From: a phage
Sequence record: PZ445432.1
Direction: 5' to 3' (one strand)
Length of the DNA stretch: 64,000 nucleotides
A program made the position numbers and the translations under genes. Below are positions 25,202 through 32,474 of the stretch, in pieces. Positions within the stretch are counted from its first letter, which is position 1, and every line of letters begins with the position of its first letter. A model generated the notes under the pieces. The model did no database searches. It saw only the letters and a program-made list of their open reading frames with translations, and had not been told where the DNA came from.

Positions 25202-25993
25202 TAATAAATTAGAGAACAGCGGGCCGATTACGCTGAGTGCAGAATCCAAACCGGAGTGCATTGAATAGAGTCGGTGGGTTAGTTGTAAAACTAGTACACA
25301 GTGGGCGGCAATCCCGGTTAGTGGCTAGAACGTGTAAAATGGGGCGTCTGAAACCTCTCCCCTAAACTCTTCTCTAGTTTATAAATAGTGGGGTGTGGAA
25401 ATCACTTATGTAGTAACACTGCCGATCTAGTATAAACGGTATTATCAAGCCGTAACTGGTGGAAGATGTAGGTTCGAATCCTACGATCGGTAAGAACTGG
25501 ATAACTGGTGCTTTTAACGTAAAAGCTTCCGAGGTTAGTTGCGCACTGCCTAAACCACGCGGTAGTTGGTTCCAGACTAACCAACCAGTCTGCTGAATAG
25601 TTTTATTACGATTTAACTATGTCCAGGCTAAAGAAGAACTTTAGAAGGTATTCTAGGTGGTGAAGTTTTTCCTCCATATCGGAGTAGTTTTTCAAGCTAC
25701 CAACAAAGTGGGAAATGCTGACATGAGAGATGTCACTAATGGTGCACAATAGCACAGGTAATTCGCGATAACTCCTGTTGAGTAGCAGCAAAAGGCGGGA
25801 AGTCATGACCCCAAGCCTAACCGAGTCCTCAATATACCGCAGGACATAACCACTAAGTCACCCTGACTTAAACTGGAAAATAATAGACGTTACTGTATTT
25901 TGTCTTGAAATACTTAATGAGTGAGACTTATGACTCTCCCGGTATCGTCTGTATTTTTAAGAGTTTTTACGAGAGTTCTTAAAAATACTTAAA
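25202..25993 (+). ncRNA. candidate non-coding RNA region (ORF-free, promoter-driven)
   Basis: ~800 nt downstream of a consensus promoter with no plausible plus-strand ORF; contains hairpins and one tRNA-like element. Confidence 0.3.
25421..25492 (+). other. tRNA-like element (canonical T-arm and acceptor pairing, other arms unresolved)
   Basis: gtaggttcgaatcctac T-arm; gccgatc/gatcggt acceptor; D and anticodon arms did not fold canonically by hand. Confidence 0.35.
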
Positions 25994-27971: not shown

Positions 27972-28049
27972 GGTTCTCAAGCTCATATGGTATGAGCACC
28001 CAGCTCATAACTGGAAGGTACGTAGGTTCGAATCCTCGGGGAGCCACCA
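27972..28049 (+). tRNA. tRNA with CAU anticodon (Met or Ile2)
   Basis: anticodon loop ctCATaa; D stem gctc/gagc; acceptor ggttctc/gggagcc with G-U pairs; T stem imperfect; CCA. Confidence 0.6.
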
Positions 28050-28068: not shown

Positions 28069-28257
28069 ATGGAATTATTCATAGTTTCTGTTAAATTTGC
28101 ACAAGATAGAGAACGTTCGGATGAGTTTAAACAAGGGTACAGACTAGTAAAGGCTACATCTGAACTCCATGCTATGGACAAAGTAGTAGACTATATGTAT
28201 AATGTAGAAGATGTTTACTACGTCAATGCTTTAGAAGCCTCAAAAGTAATTGACTAA
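28069..28257 (+). CDS. hypothetical protein
   Basis: ORF from track. Confidence 0.45.
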   Translation: MELFIVSVKFAQDRERSDEFKQGYRLVKATSELHAMDKVVDYMYNVEDVYYVNALEASKVID

Positions 28258-28266
28258 GGAGACTAT

Positions 28267-28452
28267 ATGTCTAAGTTTCAAGAACTCAAGCAAGAGCTAG
28301 AAGAATGTGCCTGCCCTGAGTGTAGAGGAATTGGTGAAAGTTCTGATGCAGAAGCAGTGGATACTTTTTGCAATATCTGGGTTTGCCCAAATTGCAAGGG
28401 TACAGGTATTAATCCTAACTGTGGTATTTCTCTAGATATTGAAAGAGGATAA
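28267..28452 (+). CDS. small Cys-rich zinc-ribbon-like protein
   Basis: CACPEC...CNIWVCPNC paired Cys motifs. Confidence 0.45.
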   Translation: MSKFQELKQELEECACPECRGIGESSDAEAVDTFCNIWVCPNCKGTGINPNCGISLDIERG

Positions 28453-28552
28453 TACCTGTGAAACTAAAAGATTATTATATTGGTTGGTTTGTGGGACTAG
28501 TAGTAGGATTTTCACTAGGCTATAATATGTATCAACTAATAAACTGATTACA

Positions 28553-28627
28553 TGGGGGTGTAATCGAATTGGCATAGGTACTGTACTTAAAATTCAGGTT
28601 TTGTGGGTTCGAATCCCAGCGAGGCGT
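28553..28627 (+). other. tRNA-like element (unresolved fold)
   Basis: gtgggttcgaatcccag T-arm; no canonical acceptor partner found by hand. Confidence 0.3.
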
Positions 28628-28675: not shown

Positions 28676-28906
28676 ATGAAACGAAAATTAAAAAAATCTT
28701 ATATAATTAAGATAAATAAGCTAAGAAGTAGGGCAAAAGGATGGCCACTTCGGATATTAATTGCGGATAACCATATTAGATACCATGCGGAACAACGTCA
28801 TTATAAACAGTGGGAGTCATACTGCCGCTCAAAAGCAGGTCGTTTAGATGGATCTTATGAGTTTCTATTTGGTAAGAAGCCTACTAGAGTAGCTTTAGGT
28901 AATTAA
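28676..28906 (+). CDS. hypothetical basic protein
   Basis: ORF from track. Confidence 0.4.
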   Translation: MKRKLKKSYIIKINKLRSRAKGWPLRILIADNHIRYHAEQRHYKQWESYCRSKAGRLDGSYEFLFGKKPTRVALGN

Positions 28907-28992
28907 TACTTGGAAGAGCAAATCGAATTGGCGACGAAAACCGCTTGGAAAGTGGCTGACCGGTAAAACGGCTTGAGAGTTCAAATCTCTCC
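28902..28992 (+). tRNA. tRNA-Ser (anticodon GGA), type II
   Basis: acceptor ggaagag/ctcttcc, anticodon loop ttGGAaa, long variable arm, T-arm gagagttcaaatctctc, CCA. Confidence 0.8.
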
Positions 28993-29004
28993 TCTTCCGC
29001 CAAA

Positions 29005-29099
29005 CAATTTATATGGTAGGTCAATCCAACGGCTGGCGCTGGACTCCGACTTGAAATCGGTTGATCGTAGTGATACGGTGTAAGGGTTCGATCCCCTTA
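29005..29099 (+). tRNA. tRNA-Ser (anticodon UGA), type II
   Basis: acceptor ggtaggt/acctacc, anticodon loop cTTGAaa, long variable arm, T-arm aagggttcgatcccctt, CCA. Confidence 0.75.
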
Positions 29100-29465
29100 C
29101 CTACCTCCAAATCTTGAAGTATGCCGGAATCGGTAGACGGGGCTGCCTAAAAGGTTTATAGGGAACATCCACTCCCTGCAACATACCTCATAAAGCGGCT
29201 GAGATAAATGGTCTATCTCGTGAAGGTTCAAGTCCTTCTGCTTCTTGATACATCTATGGCTCAAAGTGTAACGGTGCTATTTGATGCTCTTGGTAAGACT
29301 TCCCCGACATGCGTTCGGGAGTAAGCTGCTAAGACTAGAGTAGAAGAGTTTCTGAGAGCCGCCACAATTGAAAATTCGTACTCGTCTTGAGCTGCGTGCA
29401 ATAGGAGATAACTTGATTAGTATTCTAGAACATGCTAATTGAGGATGGTTTCGCTAACCCTGCGA
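29100..29465 (+). ncRNA. candidate structured RNA region including a tRNA-like T-arm (29212-29228)
   Basis: ORF-free 365 nt between tRNAs; gaaggttcaagtccttc T-arm-like hairpin; 13-bp inverted repeat ccacaattgaaaa/ttttcaattgtgg (29353-29365 and 29457-29469). Confidence 0.3.
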
Positions 29466-29542
29466 GTTTTCAATTGTGGCTATATCATAATTGGTTAATG
29501 ATCCTGATTGTGAATCAGGCCTATGTGGATTCGAATTCCACT
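29466..29542 (+). tRNA. tRNA-His (anticodon GUG)
   Basis: acceptor gtggcta/tagccac, D stem tcat/atga, anticodon arm cctga-ttGTGaa-tcagg, T-arm gtggattcgaattccac, CCA. Confidence 0.8.
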
Positions 29543-29577
29543 AGCCACCCCAAATTAACTTAAATAGGAAATAAAAT

Positions 29578-29775
29578 ATGGCTGATTTCTGCAAACAATG
29601 CTCCATTGATATGTGGGGCAGAGATACTGGTGATCTTTCTGGTTTGATTACAGAAGCCGAAGTCAAAGAAGGTTATGGTGCAGTTGTGGTTTGCGAAGGA
29701 TGCGGAGTTATTCGAGTAGATCATGAAGGCAAACGTTTAGAAGAACCGGAAAATTTAGGAGAAACAAATGAGTAA
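29578..29775 (+). CDS. small zinc-ribbon-like protein
   Basis: CKQC ... CEGC paired Cys motifs. Confidence 0.45.
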   Translation: MADFCKQCSIDMWGRDTGDLSGLITEAEVKEGYGAVVVCEGCGVIRVDHEGKRLEEPENLGETNE

Positions 29776-30004
29776 TGCTTTAATTAGTGAAATTATGTTA
29801 ACACGTCTTGCAGAACTGCAAACTCTTCGAGATGAATCTCAGAATAACTTATCCTACCATAAACAGATGGTAGATACTCTTACTACTCGTATTGAAACTT
29901 ACGAGCGTGATATTGCAGCATTACAAGCTCTTTTCTCCGTATCAGCACCAGATACGTTAGAACAGCCTGCTGTATCTCAGCCAGTAGAGACAGCATCTAG
30001 TTAA
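29768..30004 (+). CDS. hypothetical coiled-coil protein
   Basis: ORF from track. Confidence 0.45.
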   Translation: MSNALISEIMLTRLAELQTLRDESQNNLSYHKQMVDTLTTRIETYERDIAALQALFSVSAPDTLEQPAVSQPVETASS

Positions 30005-30013
30005 TAGCATTTT

Positions 30014-30089
30014 TGGAGTGTAGATCAATTGGCAGATCGTCGGCCTCTGACTCCGAAGGTTCCTGGTTCGATCCCAGGCACTCCAGCCA
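30014..30089 (+). tRNA. tRNA-Gln (anticodon CUG)
   Basis: U1-A72 acceptor tggagtg/cactcca, D stem gatc/gatc, anticodon loop cTCTGac, T-arm cctggttcgatcccagg, CCA. Confidence 0.75.
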
Positions 30090-30095
30090 AATAAT

Positions 30096-30171
30096 TGGAG
30101 AGTAGTGTAACGGTTAGCACAACGGCCTTTGACTCCGTTAATGGTAGGTTCGATTCCTCCTTCTCCAGCCA
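30096..30171 (+). tRNA. tRNA-Gln (anticodon UUG)
   Basis: U1-A72 acceptor tggagag/ttctcca, anticodon loop cTTTGac, T-arm gtaggttcgattcctcc, CCA. Confidence 0.75.
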
Positions 30172-30178
30172 AAATAAT

Positions 30179-30253
30179 GCGTGATTAGTTCAGTGGCTAG
30201 AACAACTGGCTTCCAACCAGTAGACACGAGTTCGACTCTCGTATCCCGCACCA
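30179..30253 (+). tRNA. tRNA-Gly (anticodon UCC)
   Basis: anticodon arm actgg-cTTCCaa-ccagt, D stem gttc/gaac, T-arm acgagttcgactctcgt, CCA; one U-C mismatch in acceptor. Confidence 0.75.
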
Positions 30254-30267
30254 AATAAGGAATCTCT

Positions 30268-30519
30268 ATGCACGTTTTTGAGTTTCGTAATAAAAGTACC
30301 AATAAACGAGTTATTGTTATTGGGGAAACATATCGAGCATATGAACAAACTGACGGCTCTGTTATCTTGAATGATGAGAAAGGGGGTTTTAGCTTTTATC
30401 CAGAAGAACCTTATGAAGAGTTTCGAAAACAATTTAACCTAGACTGGAGAAAGCATTTAAACACTGTTGCTTCATCTGTAGTACTGCCAACTACCAGTAC
30501 TGTACTATCTAATGGCTGA
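30268..30519 (+). CDS. hypothetical protein
   Basis: ORF from track. Confidence 0.45.
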   Translation: MHVFEFRNKSTNKRVIVIGETYRAYEQTDGSVILNDEKGGFSFYPEEPYEEFRKQFNLDWRKHLNTVASSVVLPTTSTVLSNG

Positions 30520-30676
30520 TAACCTAAAAGTCAAGATCGACAAACAAAAGAAACGTGTAGAAGTAGAGATTGGTGAAGAACGTGTAGCCTTCACCTTTGA
30601 ATTTCTACAACAAATGGCAATGACAGTTATGACTGATAAGTCTCCTGTTATTGAAAAAGAAATCCCGTTGAAATAA
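30512..30676 (+). CDS. small hypothetical protein (54 aa)
   Basis: hand-translated MADNLKVKIDKQKKRVEVEIGEER...; followed by cccgttgaaataacggg hairpin. Confidence 0.3.
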   Translation: MADNLKVKIDKQKKRVEVEIGEERVAFTFEFLQQMAMTVMTDKSPVIEKEIPLK

Positions 30677-30684
30677 CGGGTTCT

Positions 30685-30771
30685 GCTGGGTTGGCAGAAT
30701 GGTTGAATGCACCTGATTTGTAATCAGGAGGAGTAATCCCGTTGCAGGTTCGAATCCTGTGCCCAGCACCA
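30685..30771 (+). tRNA. type II tRNA, anticodon read as UGU (identity uncertain)
   Basis: acceptor gctgggt/gcccagc, anticodon arm cctga-ttTGTaa-tcagg, 15-nt variable arm, T-arm gcaggttcgaatcctgt, CCA. Confidence 0.55.
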
Positions 30772-30785
30772 ATTTAAGGACTATT

Positions 30786-30953
30786 ATGTTTAAACTGTTA
30801 GTAGTTATCTGGTATAGTCAATCAAATAGAGCGAATACCTCCCACGTTATAGACTTTACTACTAAAAATGAAGCTGAAAAAGCATATGCTAATTTAATAG
30901 AACGCAATAAAGAATCTCGTAGTATAGTTTATGAAGTGACTAAACTTTATTAA
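30786..30953 (+). CDS. hypothetical protein
   Basis: internal ATG with AAGGA RBS; track ORF start 30759 overlaps the tRNA and is trimmed. Confidence 0.4.
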   Translation: MFKLLVVIWYSQSNRANTSHVIDFTTKNEAEKAYANLIERNKESRSIVYEVTKLY

Positions 30954-30992
30954 AAATTCATTTGCTTTCCCTCTTATTTATTGTTATAATAT
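30952..30992 (+). promoter_or_regulatory. conserved early sigma70 promoter
   Basis: aaaaattcatttgctttccc...ttgttataat. Confidence 0.55.
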
Positions 30993-31020
30993 TTATATAA
31001 ATTAATGAGAGGGAAACCAA

Positions 31021-31311
31021 ATGAAACGTTATCTTTCTGTTATGTTCCAAACCGGCGGCCAAAGATACACCTATGAATTTCCACCTTCCTGGAAAATCAG
31101 GGAAGGTGATCAAATAGTTGTGTTGACACCGCGTGAAGAATATAAAGTAGTGACGGTTAAACAAGTATTTCCAAAAGATCATGAACCAGCTATAGGCATC
31201 CGATATAAGATGATTCATGGCGTGGTTCGTCAAGTACCACGAACTGAGGTAGAAGTAGATAATACTGGAGAAACTAAATTCCATTATACTTCTTACTTAG
31301 ACAGTGTGTGA
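31021..31311 (+). CDS. hypothetical protein
   Basis: ORF from track. Confidence 0.5.
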   Translation: MKRYLSVMFQTGGQRYTYEFPPSWKIREGDQIVVLTPREEYKVVTVKQVFPKDHEPAIGIRYKMIHGVVRQVPRTEVEVDNTGETKFHYTSYLDSV

Positions 31312-31326
31312 TGTAAATATTTTAAT

Positions 31327-31403
31327 GCTTCGGTAGCTTAGCGATCTAAAGCACTCGGCTGATAACCGAGAGATCAGGGGTTTAAATCCCTCCCGGAGTA
31401 CCA
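31327..31403 (+). tRNA. tRNA-Ile (anticodon GAU)
   Basis: acceptor gcttcgg/ccggagt with G-U pairs, D stem gctt/aagc, anticodon arm ctcgg-ctGATaa-ccgag, T-loop tttaaat, CCA. Confidence 0.75.
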
Positions 31404-31499
31404 AATCTAGGAATTAAGACTATGCGTCCAGGAAAGTTTAAAAAAGCTAGTTGGTCTAAAGAGTACAAAGAATACTTACTTAGCCTAGTAAAACGTAAT

Positions 31500-31575
31500 A
31501 GTTAGTTGGCAGAGTGGTTATGCGCCTCCTTCATACGGAGCGACTACAGTGGTTCAAATCCACTACTAACTACCA
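31500..31575 (+). tRNA. tRNA with CAU anticodon (Met or Ile2)
   Basis: acceptor agttagt/actaact, anticodon loop ttCATac, T-arm agtggttcaaatccact, CCA. Confidence 0.7.
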
Positions 31576-31588
31576 AACAGGAGATCTA

Positions 31589-31957
31589 ATGAAAGCGTAT
31601 CAAAATCTTAAATCTGGCGTAATTAATATTGTTCATAATAATCAGATTATTCAACTGTACTCTAAAGATGGTGAACTTAAACAAAAGGTTCTAGTTGAAG
31701 ATCTAGATGGTATCACACCTCATTTTGACCCAGAATCCTTTCGTGAAGTCAAAGTGGAAGTCGCCCCTCAAATTGAAGGTGGTCAACACCTAAATGTCAA
31801 TGTGTTAAGTCGTGATCAGCTTTTGGATGCGCAGAAACATCCTGAAAAATACCCTCAATTAACTATCCGTGTTTCAGGGTACGCTGTGCGTTTTAACGCA
31901 CTGACGCGTGAACAGCAGAACGACGTTATTAGTCGTACATTTACTCAGGCGATGTAA
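31589..31957 (+). CDS. grcA: autonomous glycyl radical cofactor GrcA(YfiD)-like protein
   Basis: C-terminus [10 protein letters not shown]...[34 protein letters not shown] closely matches E. coli GrcA as recalled; AGGAG RBS; track start 31514 overlaps the tRNA. Confidence 0.8.
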
Positions 31958-32038
31958 TGGGGCTTGGATACGGTTTCTACGAACTACGTAAGGTAGTCGA
32001 GCAAACTCCATTTATCTCCCAAGTTTTAGGAGAAATGT

Positions 32039-32353
32039 GTGGATCGAGCATTAAGACGTCATCACCGGCAACGTGTAAAGAACAACCGCAAGAAGTATTG
32101 GACAGTCTTCCCACATGAAGAAAGCCCTAAACGGTTAGGTATTATCACTACTACTCCTTGTATCTGTTCTTGTTGGATGTGCGGGAACCCTCGCAAACAC
32201 TTTAAGAATAGTAAAGCAGGGATGAAAACCTCGGAGATTAGGAAAATGGAAGCAATGATTACGGATATTTCAAATGATGAATTTGATGGCTTCGTAGGAT
32301 TCGGGGAAGATATTAGCTCGGACTGTTTCGAAGATGAGCTCCCAGGTCTATGA
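32039..32353 (+). CDS. hypothetical basic Cys-rich protein
   Basis: GTG start with AGGAG RBS; CICSCWMCGNP cluster. Confidence 0.5.
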   Translation: MDRALRRHHRQRVKNNRKKYWTVFPHEESPKRLGIITTTPCICSCWMCGNPRKHFKNSKAGMKTSEIRKMEAMITDISNDEFDGFVGFGEDISSDCFEDELPGL

Positions 32354-32362
32354 TTAATAACA

Positions 32363-32398
32363 AACCCCAGCTATTGAATAAGTAGTCTGGGGTTTTTC
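32363..32398 (+). terminator. rho-independent terminator
   Basis: aaccccag...ctggggtt hairpin followed by tttt. Confidence 0.65.
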
Positions 32399-32474
32399 TG
32401 TATACAGGTAGATAATTTATGTATAATAAAATTCATCCACATTAGGTTAATTCAAAAGACTTAATGGAGGTAAT

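Follow-up and report, generated by a model that had tools for sequence, protein, structure and literature searches.

The gap between the transfer RNA (tRNA) genes tRNA-Ser(UGA) and tRNA-His in a 64,000-nucleotide (nt) stretch of phage DNA (sequence record PZ445432.1; the whole stretch is referred to here as the window) almost certainly holds the orthologues of three small stable RNAs of bacteriophage T5, namely RNA1, RNA I and RNA III. The gap comprises 366 nt (29110-29475) and lies inside a phage tRNA cluster. The three RNAs are already known from T5, are seldom annotated and are dispensable on laboratory hosts. Taken together, the explanation that best accounts for the region is that it consists of three T5-type RNAs with the secondary structures and the processing described below, and the probability of this reading as a whole is put at roughly 0.8.

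Identification of the three RNAs

The window belongs to a T5-like phage (Tequintavirus). Positions 28900-29560 are 100% identical to Escherichia phage HildyBeyeler (MZ501074; Demerecviridae, Tequintavirus) and 98-99% identical to many T5-like Salmonella and Escherichia phages. In the T5 record AY543070, the homologous interval is annotated as three misc_RNA genes: rna1 (144 nt; "tRNA-like stable RNA with unknown functions"), rnaI (107 nt) and rnaIII (106 nt), the latter two each labelled "stable RNA with unknown functions". A 78-nt tRNA-His, in which the -1 position is included, follows directly after rnaIII. The same three genes are also annotated in AY692264, and rnaI and rnaIII in the record of phage DT57C (KM979354). 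A first-pass annotation of the window had treated the gap as an unresolved region and as one structure; in fact, the T5 and DT57C records already annotate these RNAs there, and the region is made up of three separate modules. The closest record, MZ501074, leaves all three unannotated.

Boundaries in the window were obtained by transferring the GenBank features of T5 (AY543070) through alignment A1 (window versus T5), in which identity to T5 is 85.4% for RNA1 (144 aligned positions), 91.6% for RNA I (107 positions) and 100% for RNA III (106 positions). Direct matches of RNA I and RNA III land on the T5 rnaI and rnaIII features. Furthermore, the gene order tRNA-Ser(GGA), tRNA-Ser(UGA), RNA1, RNA I, RNA III and tRNA-His, all on the same strand, is that of T5 (Table 1).

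Rfam, searched at the gathering threshold and at E<=10, gave nothing inside 29113-29474, and the sole overlap was a SNORA52 match at chance level (12 bits, E=8.9, 29426-29559) riding on tRNA-His. ARAGORN made no tRNA or transfer-messenger RNA (tmRNA) call in 29110-29475, which agrees with the earlier failure to fold a canonical cloverleaf by hand; neither program yields the standard tRNAs that the first-pass annotation thought software might recover. Its statement that the gap has no open reading frame (ORF) holds in the sense that the overlapping ORFs are of 38-55 amino acids (aa) only. The motifs that it quoted all exist, at sites 9-10 nt further downstream than it had placed them, and its limits for the gap (29100-29465) are corrected to those given above.

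A strong sigma-70-like promoter is predicted at 28175-28203, and no terminator above chance was found within the region (2 hits in the terminator scan, compared with 2.1 expected from shuffles). This arrangement is consistent with co-transcription of the RNAs with the flanking tRNAs. The fold of the whole 371-nt stretch has a z-score of -3.84, and covariation among relatives is the strongest sign that the structure exceeds chance.

RNA1, a tRNA-Leu derivative

Relatives of RNA1 were gathered from IMG/VR by a D-arm pattern and from GenBank phages, and 20 distinct sequences from Tequintavirus, Epseptimavirus, Klebsiella phages and a Pectobacterium-phage-like contig were assembled into alignment A2. 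A cloverleaf comprising a 6-bp acceptor helix, a 3-bp D stem, a three-helix arm, a 6-bp variable arm and a T arm was tested on A2, and 94.2% of cells are paired, compared with 39-50% when the partners are slid by 1-3 columns. Compensatory changes are present at 15 pairs, and four of the seven acceptor pairs (A2 columns 5-11/129-135) are changed on both sides. On four of five measures none of 500 shuffles matches the observed value, while 111 of the 500 do so for the fifth, the count of further pair types. RNAalifold independently gives the same arms with the exception of the D arm, for which an alternative hairpin is drawn, and both G.U pairs and fold energies agree with the + strand. The structures of RNA1 and of the processing helix described below are put forward with high confidence.

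Two of these arms had been noticed in the first-pass annotation. The 6-bp hairpin (GAGATA at 29201-29206, TATCTC at 29214-29219) is confirmed as the stem of the long variable arm, and the T-arm-like hairpin GAAGGTTCAAGTCCTTC is present at 29222-29238, not at 29212-29228. In place of an anticodon stem-loop, RNA1 has three stacked helices (29142-46/29195-99, 29152-55/29185-88 and 29159-64/29173-78) with 3, 2 and 3 compensatory pairs, respectively. The 8-nt apical loop ACAUCCAC sits in a nearly invariant motif, GAACAUCCACUC, and is kept across Tequintavirus, Epseptimavirus, Klebsiella and Pectobacterium phages. The stems of RNA1 covary, and the D loop, the AAUGGUC loop and the apical motif are invariant or nearly so; in the T loop, three of seven positions are variable. 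At the acceptor end, a U.U mismatch occupies the 1-72 position (29115/29245), and the leader (29111-29113) pairs with the trailer (29247-29249) by pairs that covary in Klebsiella phages (UA to GC and AU to CG).

The D arm of RNA1 is also found in ordinary phage tRNA-Leu genes of contigs L046 and L052. Covariance model R1 scores 171.5 bits on the window (29111-29251), and its best non-self matches are phage tRNA-Leu genes, namely those of L046 (61 bits), L052 (49 bits), T5 (39 bits) and T4 (37 bits). These matches identify RNA1 as a tRNA-Leu derivative, descended from a class-II tRNA(Leu) gene.

The D arm, a T loop of the UUCAAGU type and the acceptor helix of a canonical tRNA are all present in RNA1, whereas a single-stranded discriminator and CCA are missing. 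After the acceptor strand RNA1 reads UUGAUAC, so that position 73 is U and no CCA follows, while the neighbouring tRNAs encode CCA. Where an anticodon loop would be expected, 58 nt form the three-helix arm, and U33 has no conserved counterpart, the equivalent base being U, G or C. Because the flanks are unlike an anticodon loop, CCA is lacking, position 73 is U and the leader and trailer close the end, RNA1 is not considered a working tRNA. With both its decoding and its charging end disabled in the proposed structure, it would be unable to decode and very probably could not be aminoacylated.

When the RNA1 loops were compared by eye with tRNA-His, RNA I and RNA III, just one 6-nt match, to the tRNA-His T arm, was seen. 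A loop-tRNA-His pairing was dropped as a candidate, since this match is lost in T5, where the loop is ACAUCCGC.

RNA I, a hairpin with an acceptor-like end

RNA I is closed by a 5-bp terminal stem (GGCUC/GAGCC) and ends in a 3' GCCA tail. In a sample of 30 copies (24 distinct sequences), U(-1)/G(+1) is present in 30/30, the 5' junction reading AU before and GG after the boundary, and the 3' end that follows the 5-bp stem is (G/A)CCA in all, with A as the discriminator in one copy only. An acceptor-like stem, U-1/G+1 and RCCA are features recognised by RNase P, and RNA I has the acceptor-like stem, G+1, U-1 and 3' RCCA. The RNA I of Tequintavirus (107 nt) and that of Epseptimavirus (100 nt) have in common a 5' block, GUAACGGUGC, and a 3' block, GAGUUUC, and covariation is confined to the terminal stem and the apical hairpin. 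A single common fold for RNA I was rejected, as the central domains of the two genera do not align structurally.

A conserved helix around RNA III

The 13-bp inverted repeat of the first-pass annotation is real and longer than had been recognised. Its arms, CCACAATTGAAAA and TTTTCAATTGTGG, are located at 29362-29374 and 29467-29479; a repeat search extends them to 18-nt arms (29361-29378/29463-29480) that are 94% complementary, and the minimum free energy fold has 20 bp. The repeat does overlap the 5' end of tRNA-His, by its first 5 nt, and additionally takes in the 3' GCCA of the upstream RNA I. RNA III folds into a three-way junction that includes an internal hairpin of 12 bp. The helix and its RNA III insert have a z-score of -6.67 on the + strand, where none of 200 shuffles is as stable, and of -3.77 on the - strand.

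Conservation of the helix has been studied by comparing what lies between the RNA I CCA and tRNA-His in different phages. This slot holds five unrelated inserts, of 33, 68, 111 (RNA III type), 122 and 138 nt, and in all five a closing stem runs from the G before the RNA I CCA to base 5 of tRNA-His. The stem is uninterrupted over 14-21 bp with four of the five inserts (20-21 bp with three, 14 bp with the 33-nt insert), and around the 138-nt insert it consists of 12 bp, a 1x1 internal loop and 7 bp. In the 20-bp register, pairing holds in 97.1% of cells over all five types of insert, compared with 32-43% when the partners are slid. Ten of the 20 pairs show compensatory changes, and eight invariant pairs are found in columns 2-11, nearest the base.

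A staggered cut leaving 2-nt 3' overhangs is the signature geometry of RNase III, and its substrate helices are about two turns (~20 bp) long. The covariation-supported helix has 18-20 bp. Placed on it, the RNA III ends annotated in T5 show the same overhangs: 29369 pairs with 29472 and 29474 with 29367, leaving 2-nt 3' overhangs, and the complementary products, ending at 29368 and beginning at 29475, likewise have a 2-nt overhang (all these ends being T5 GenBank coordinates). The tRNA-His of the window has the T5-type U at -1 together with C73, whereas G is found at -1 in four of five unrelated phage genes. The usual route to an extra 5' nucleotide on tRNA-His is an RNase P cut guided by G-1/C73.

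RNA III is at least 95% identical in all 283 phage records that have it, including Epseptimaviruses with diverged RNA1 and RNA I. Two causes could underlie such near-invariance: the entire sequence may be strongly constrained, or it may have spread laterally, along with tRNA-His, in recent times.

Among the options listed in the first-pass annotation, a tRNA with an insertion fits RNA1, which is tRNA-Leu-like with an extended arm for the anticodon loop; a processing structure fits the inverted repeat, now a conserved processing-type helix; and another RNA fits the remainder, where two further non-tRNA RNAs are present. Each option was true of some part, and the list as a whole was incomplete.

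Proposed processing and possible roles

It is proposed that the three small stable RNAs are co-transcribed and excised from a polycistronic tRNA precursor by RNase P and RNase III, a scheme that we regard as somewhat better than an even bet. The terminal stem of RNA I, its U(-1)/G(+1) and its (G/A)CCA would imitate an acceptor end, so that RNase P could cut at the 5' end of RNA I and at once make the 3' end of RNA1. As the most likely mechanism, the helix geometry suggests that RNase III cuts with a stagger, at 29368/29369 and at 29474/29475; RNA III would be released by this, and RNA I left with a 4-nt tail (CAAU) to be trimmed back to CCA. Such trimming is implied by the difference between the annotated RNA I end (29364) and the cut at 29368. 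On the other side of the helix, tRNA-His would gain a 5'-phosphorylated extra nucleotide, U-1, with no encoded G-1 needed. We infer this RNase III-made 5' end from the T5-type U-1/C73, the 78-nt annotation in T5 and the geometry of the helix. Under this scheme, one conserved helix would set both the CCA end of RNA I and the -1 nucleotide of tRNA-His. RNase III takes part in the maturation of phage T4 tRNAs, according to a passage of PMC4810235 that cites McClain (1979).

Any specific biological role for the three mature RNAs can be offered with low expectation of being correct. By retaining the D arm, T arm, variable arm and acceptor helix, RNA1 would keep the tRNA elbow and overall shape, and it would most likely act by occupying, or by titrating, some factor able to recognise the shape of a tRNA. 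RNA III may for the most part be a side product of the processing helix, seeing that unrelated inserts have the helix too; its near-invariance may leave room for a role of its own. The T5 tRNA region has been linked to evasion of PARIS, a tRNA-cleaving defence (PMC11464382, PMC12409363), and the adjacent tRNA-like RNAs are therefore reasonable candidates for follow-up. Nothing in this analysis ties RNA1, RNA I or RNA III to defence.

Distribution and alternative explanations

RNA1 was found in 493 phage records at 78-100% identity (phages of Escherichia, Salmonella, Klebsiella, Pectobacterium and other hosts), among them 71 Klebsiella phages without RNA I. RNA I of the window type is present in 306 records and RNA III in 283. 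In DT57C (KM979354 26408-26725; L086), tRNA-Ser(UGA) is followed by a 6-nt gap and then by an RNA I that is 100% identical to that of the window, and RNA1 is absent. Some Epseptimaviruses have merely a 33-nt hairpin where RNA III would be. In Salmonella phage LVR16A (L008/L030), an extra structured insert of ~130 nt lies between RNA1 and RNA I, and RNA III is replaced by an unlike insert of 138 nt. Small structured RNA modules thus seem to accumulate at the RNA1-RNA III locus.

These counts reveal an annotation gap: ~490 T5-like genomes have RNA1 and ~300 have RNA I and RNA III, almost none of which are annotated, and some records carry spurious "hypothetical protein" coding sequences (CDSs) over the RNAs. 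To the T5 annotation, the present analysis adds covariation-backed structures, the derivation of RNA1 from tRNA-Leu and a proposed connection, open to testing, between the helix and how the 5' end of tRNA-His is formed.

Several points weigh against the reading of the gap as three T5-type RNAs processed as proposed. The RNA ends rest on the feature boundaries of the T5 GenBank record, the presumed accumulation as discrete stable species rests on the words "stable RNA" in that record, and the suggested involvement of RNase III and RNase P comes from geometry and consensus features only. We know of no binding partner or target for RNA1, RNA I or RNA III. The central domain of RNA I differs by genus and its fold is only partly supported by covariation, while the interior of RNA III is almost without informative variation. 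Taken alone, RNA1 (z = -1.89) and RNA I (z = -1.40) are thermodynamically unremarkable, and the evidence for both is therefore comparative. The modules are separable, as DT57C lacks RNA1 and the Klebsiella phages have RNA1 without RNA I. T5 mutants lacking 29191-32442 (T5 coordinates), a deletion in which the region is included, are viable in laboratory E. coli (PMC11464382).

The absence of single modules from some relatives and the deletability of the region in T5 would also suit a different explanation, in which the elements are decaying tRNA debris or spacers without function and their structure is due to tRNA descent or to surviving hairpins. The five unrelated inserts in the slot between RNA I and tRNA-His point the same way, as does the labelling of the RNAs in T5 records, which assign no function to them ("unknown functions"); in the literature searched, no paper describing the T5 stable RNAs or a newer function was found. 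Debris is nevertheless unlikely. It does not account for the presence of RNA1 at such identity in phages of so many hosts, for the combination of invariant loops and compensatory stems in RNA1, which is the mark that purifying selection leaves on a folded RNA, for the near-identity of RNA III across its 283 records, or for the compensation that maintains the helix around every type of insert.

That the helix serves as an intrinsic terminator or attenuator instead of an RNase III site, or that it was left behind by a mobile or recombination element inserted upstream of tRNA-His, is rather improbable. The terminator scan does flag 29450-29466, followed by TTTTCAATTG, and a variable insert between inverted-repeat flanks would suit a mobile element in the T5 tRNA region, which is rich in homing endonucleases and prone to deletion (T5 record; PMC12483538). 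However, the terminator hits equal the shuffle expectation, and immediately downstream come tRNA-His and other tRNAs, without an intervening promoter. Moreover, the helix always ends exactly at the RNA I CCA and the tRNA-His 5' strand, compensatory changes keep pairing at half of its pairs, and the annotated RNA III ends form overhangs of the RNase III type.

Bacterial tRNA-Leu(UAA) genes are the classic home of group I introns, and the extra 42-48 nt of RNA1 sit exactly at the place of the anticodon loop in a body that is closest to tRNA-Leu. RNA1 could on these grounds be an intron-containing tRNA-Leu gene, whose extra arm is removed by splicing to leave a functional tRNA. This is very improbable, as an insert of ~48 nt is far below the size of a group I core (P3-P9, >~200 nt), no intron or ribozyme was matched in Rfam at E<=10 and RNA1 has no bulge-helix-bulge motif. 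The flanks of the arm do not resemble an anticodon loop, given the variable U33-equivalent and a 3' side that reads CAUAAA, UA-AAA, GAAAAC or GA-CGG, and removal of the arm leaves 11 nt, not 7. In addition, RNA1 has no CCA, its acceptor end is closed, and the stable species in the T5 annotation is the 144-nt form.

That the stretch encodes small proteins, as suggested by the overlapping ORFs and by the CDSs annotated in Sepoy, gmork, Tennessee and other records, is hardly credible, since no ORF reaches 60 aa, single-base indels separate close relatives in RNA1 (A2 column 81) and RNA I (L044), substitutions are paired across helices with no codon periodicity, and the annotated CDSs vary in frame and position between records.

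Feature coordinates and neighbouring genes

The features of the region are listed in Table 1, together with the longer elements from other phages that are described in the next section. Both serine tRNAs upstream of the gap are missed by ARAGORN and are below or near the Rfam threshold, with 21.7 bits from the tRNA model and 38 bits from the tRNA-Sec model. Both are annotated in T5 and in MZ501074, the latter listing tRNA-Ser(UGA) as tRNA-Ser (TCA).

Table 1. Coordinates of RNA1, RNA I, RNA III, their structural parts and neighbouring tRNA genes in the window, and of long tRNA-like elements in other phage contigs.
Feature	Position	Strand	Evidence or remark
tRNA-Ser(GGA), long-arm	~28913-29001	+	Annotated in MZ501074 and T5; missed by ARAGORN
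tRNA-Ser(UGA), encoded CCA	29015-29109	+	Rfam tRNA-Sec model, 38 bits over 29015-29105; upstream boundary of the gap
RNA1, tRNA-Leu-like stable RNA, T5 rna1 orthologue	29113-29257	+	Transfer through A1; covariance model; covariation
RNA1 acceptor-like stem, 5' strand	29116-29121	+	Pairs with 29239-29244 (A2 columns 6-11/129-134)
RNA1 D arm, CCG-GAAUCGGUAGA-CGG, tRNA-Leu type	29124-29140	+	Invariant, 20/20 sequences
RNA1 extended arm, in place of the anticodon stem-loop	29142-29199	+	Covariation; conserved apical loop
RNA1 long variable arm, GAGAUA-AAUGGUC-UAUCUC	29201-29219	+	100% paired; one compensatory pair (AU/UA/CG); loop invariant
RNA1 T arm, GAAGG-UUCAAGU-CCUUC	29222-29238	+	100% paired
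RNA I, rod-like hairpin, 107 nt, T5 rnaI orthologue	29258-29364	+	AY543070 boundaries; folds
Helix 5' arm: RNA I GCCA, CAAU spacer, first 12 nt of RNA III	29361-29380	+	Inverted repeat; fold
RNA III, 106 nt	29369-29474	+	AY543070 rnaIII boundaries; 100% identical to T5 rnaIII
Helix 3' arm: last 14 nt of RNA III, U-1 (29475), tRNA-His G1-C5	29461-29480	+	Repeat search; folds
tRNA-His(GUG), C73, encoded CCA, U at -1 (not G)	29476-29552	+	Called by ARAGORN and Rfam
Long tRNA-like elements	L049 879-1045; L050 8201-8367; L076 3640-3806; L079 13875-14059; L016 1665-1829		
Long tRNA-like elements	L051 7427-7594; L068 5028-5193; L081 3959-4125; L034 2480-2647	-	

The unbroken identity of the window to HildyBeyeler starts only at ~28598; upstream of this point, the window matches a second place in the HildyBeyeler record, or other phages. 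Because the upstream match is displaced, the tRNA-Ala and tRNA-Leu annotations of HildyBeyeler are not transferable to 28391-28551 of the window. Downstream, an 87-nt tRNA-Thr(UGU) at 30685-30771 has a long, class-II-like variable arm, GGAGGAGUAAUCCCGUU; the tRNA-Thr of T5 is an unlike sequence of 75 nt. Three odd tRNA-like calls were also observed in the window, at 25420-25493, 27972-28046 and 28559-28621. They comprise an ARAGORN tRNA-Ser with anticodon ACT, a 38-bit tRNA seen by Rfam alone and, as the third, a 23-bit partial tRNA match (model positions 6-65) without an acceptor stem. As candidate assignments, these calls may correspond to further tRNA-like stable RNAs of T5 (RNA2, RNA3, RNA2H).

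Longer tRNA-Leu-like elements in other phages

Larger phage contigs were seen to carry, among their clustered tRNA genes, longer tRNA-like elements of 126-185 nt (most of them ~160-170 nt). These contigs range from 8 to ~330 kb, with several cut by the contig end. The long elements begin like RNA1, with the acceptor strand followed by UG-CCG-GAAYUGGUAKA-CGG. The anticodon loop is replaced by a multi-helix arm, GGUGUGG...CCACC, with hairpin loop UAAUGCUAAUA. The T arm is normal, the variable arm is long and has the loop CAGYRCAACGYAA, and position 73 is A in several of the elements. In eight aligned long elements, compensatory changes are found at 22 of 38 predicted pairs. Scores of the RNA1 model on the long elements are 32-44 bits. 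ARAGORN and Rfam make no call on the long elements, and no Rfam family covers them. Looser relatives are present in L038, L043, L071 and L013. GOLLD RNA (RF02032, 163-168 bits) was seen in two of the same metagenomic contigs, a few kb from the long elements (L051 4887-5350, - strand; L079 11234-11702).

The long elements may represent an undescribed RNA class. It is a speculative and improbable extension of this that RNA1 is the small T5-group member of a wider undescribed class built on a Leu-type (class-II) scaffold, whose members, retaining the elbow and the long variable arm but unable to decode, might serve as decoys for host factors that read tRNA shape. Such factors could include tRNA-targeting anti-phage nucleases or sensors, and the decoys would then be an RNA-based counter-defence next to the nuclease-resistant tRNAs of T5.

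Comparison with known systems

The closest known system is that of T5 itself, in which RNA1, RNA I and RNA III have the same position, order and lengths as the elements of the window. T5 differs in having a 174-nt ORF (T5.063) between tRNA-Ser and RNA1, which is absent from the window. With class-II tRNA-Leu, RNA1 has in common the D arm GCCGGAAUCGGUAGACGG, the T arm, the long variable arm and the acceptor helix. It differs from tRNA-Leu in that it has no 7-nt anticodon loop and no CCA, has U73 instead of A and a U.U at 1-72, and has a terminal helix lengthened by leader-trailer pairing; both ARAGORN and the Rfam tRNA model (RF00005, at E<=10) are silent on it.

Retention of the elbow with a longer helix in place of the anticodon arm is also seen in the tRNA-like domain of tmRNA and in YrlA, a bacterial Y RNA. 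RNA1 differs from YrlA by ending in an acceptor helix, and from tmRNA by having neither CCA nor a coding region. A tmRNA was ruled out as a candidate for the region, as ARAGORN called none in the window and Rfam matched neither tmRNA nor YrlA in the region. For RNA I, a formal parallel is the precursor of 4.5S RNA, a hairpin substrate of RNase P; RNA I likewise folds as a long hairpin of irregular build, and its terminal stem is short. It has no sequence or Rfam similarity to signal recognition particle (SRP)/4.5S RNA or other families, and its cleavage by RNase P is a prediction.

Species 1 and species 2 of phage T4 (rnaC and rnaD) are likewise stable RNAs of ~120-140 nt in a phage tRNA cluster to which no function has been assigned. 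One is an RNA of ~139 nt with a tRNA-type T arm and an acceptor-like end, and the other, of ~119 nt, ends in ACCA. Homology between RNA1 and the T4 RNAs is not detectable with model R1, which even with filters off gives rnaC 13.3 bits, below many ordinary tRNAs. The T4 RNAs rnaC and rnaD are positional and formal analogues, not family members.

For the processing helix, the relevant comparison is with the RNase III helices of ribosomal RNA operons, T7 early mRNA and the T4 precursor upstream of tRNA-Gln, in which, as here, sequences on either side of a product form a helix of about two turns. The putative RNase III helix of the window is unusual in that it includes the CCA of one RNA, RNA I, and the first five bases of tRNA-His.

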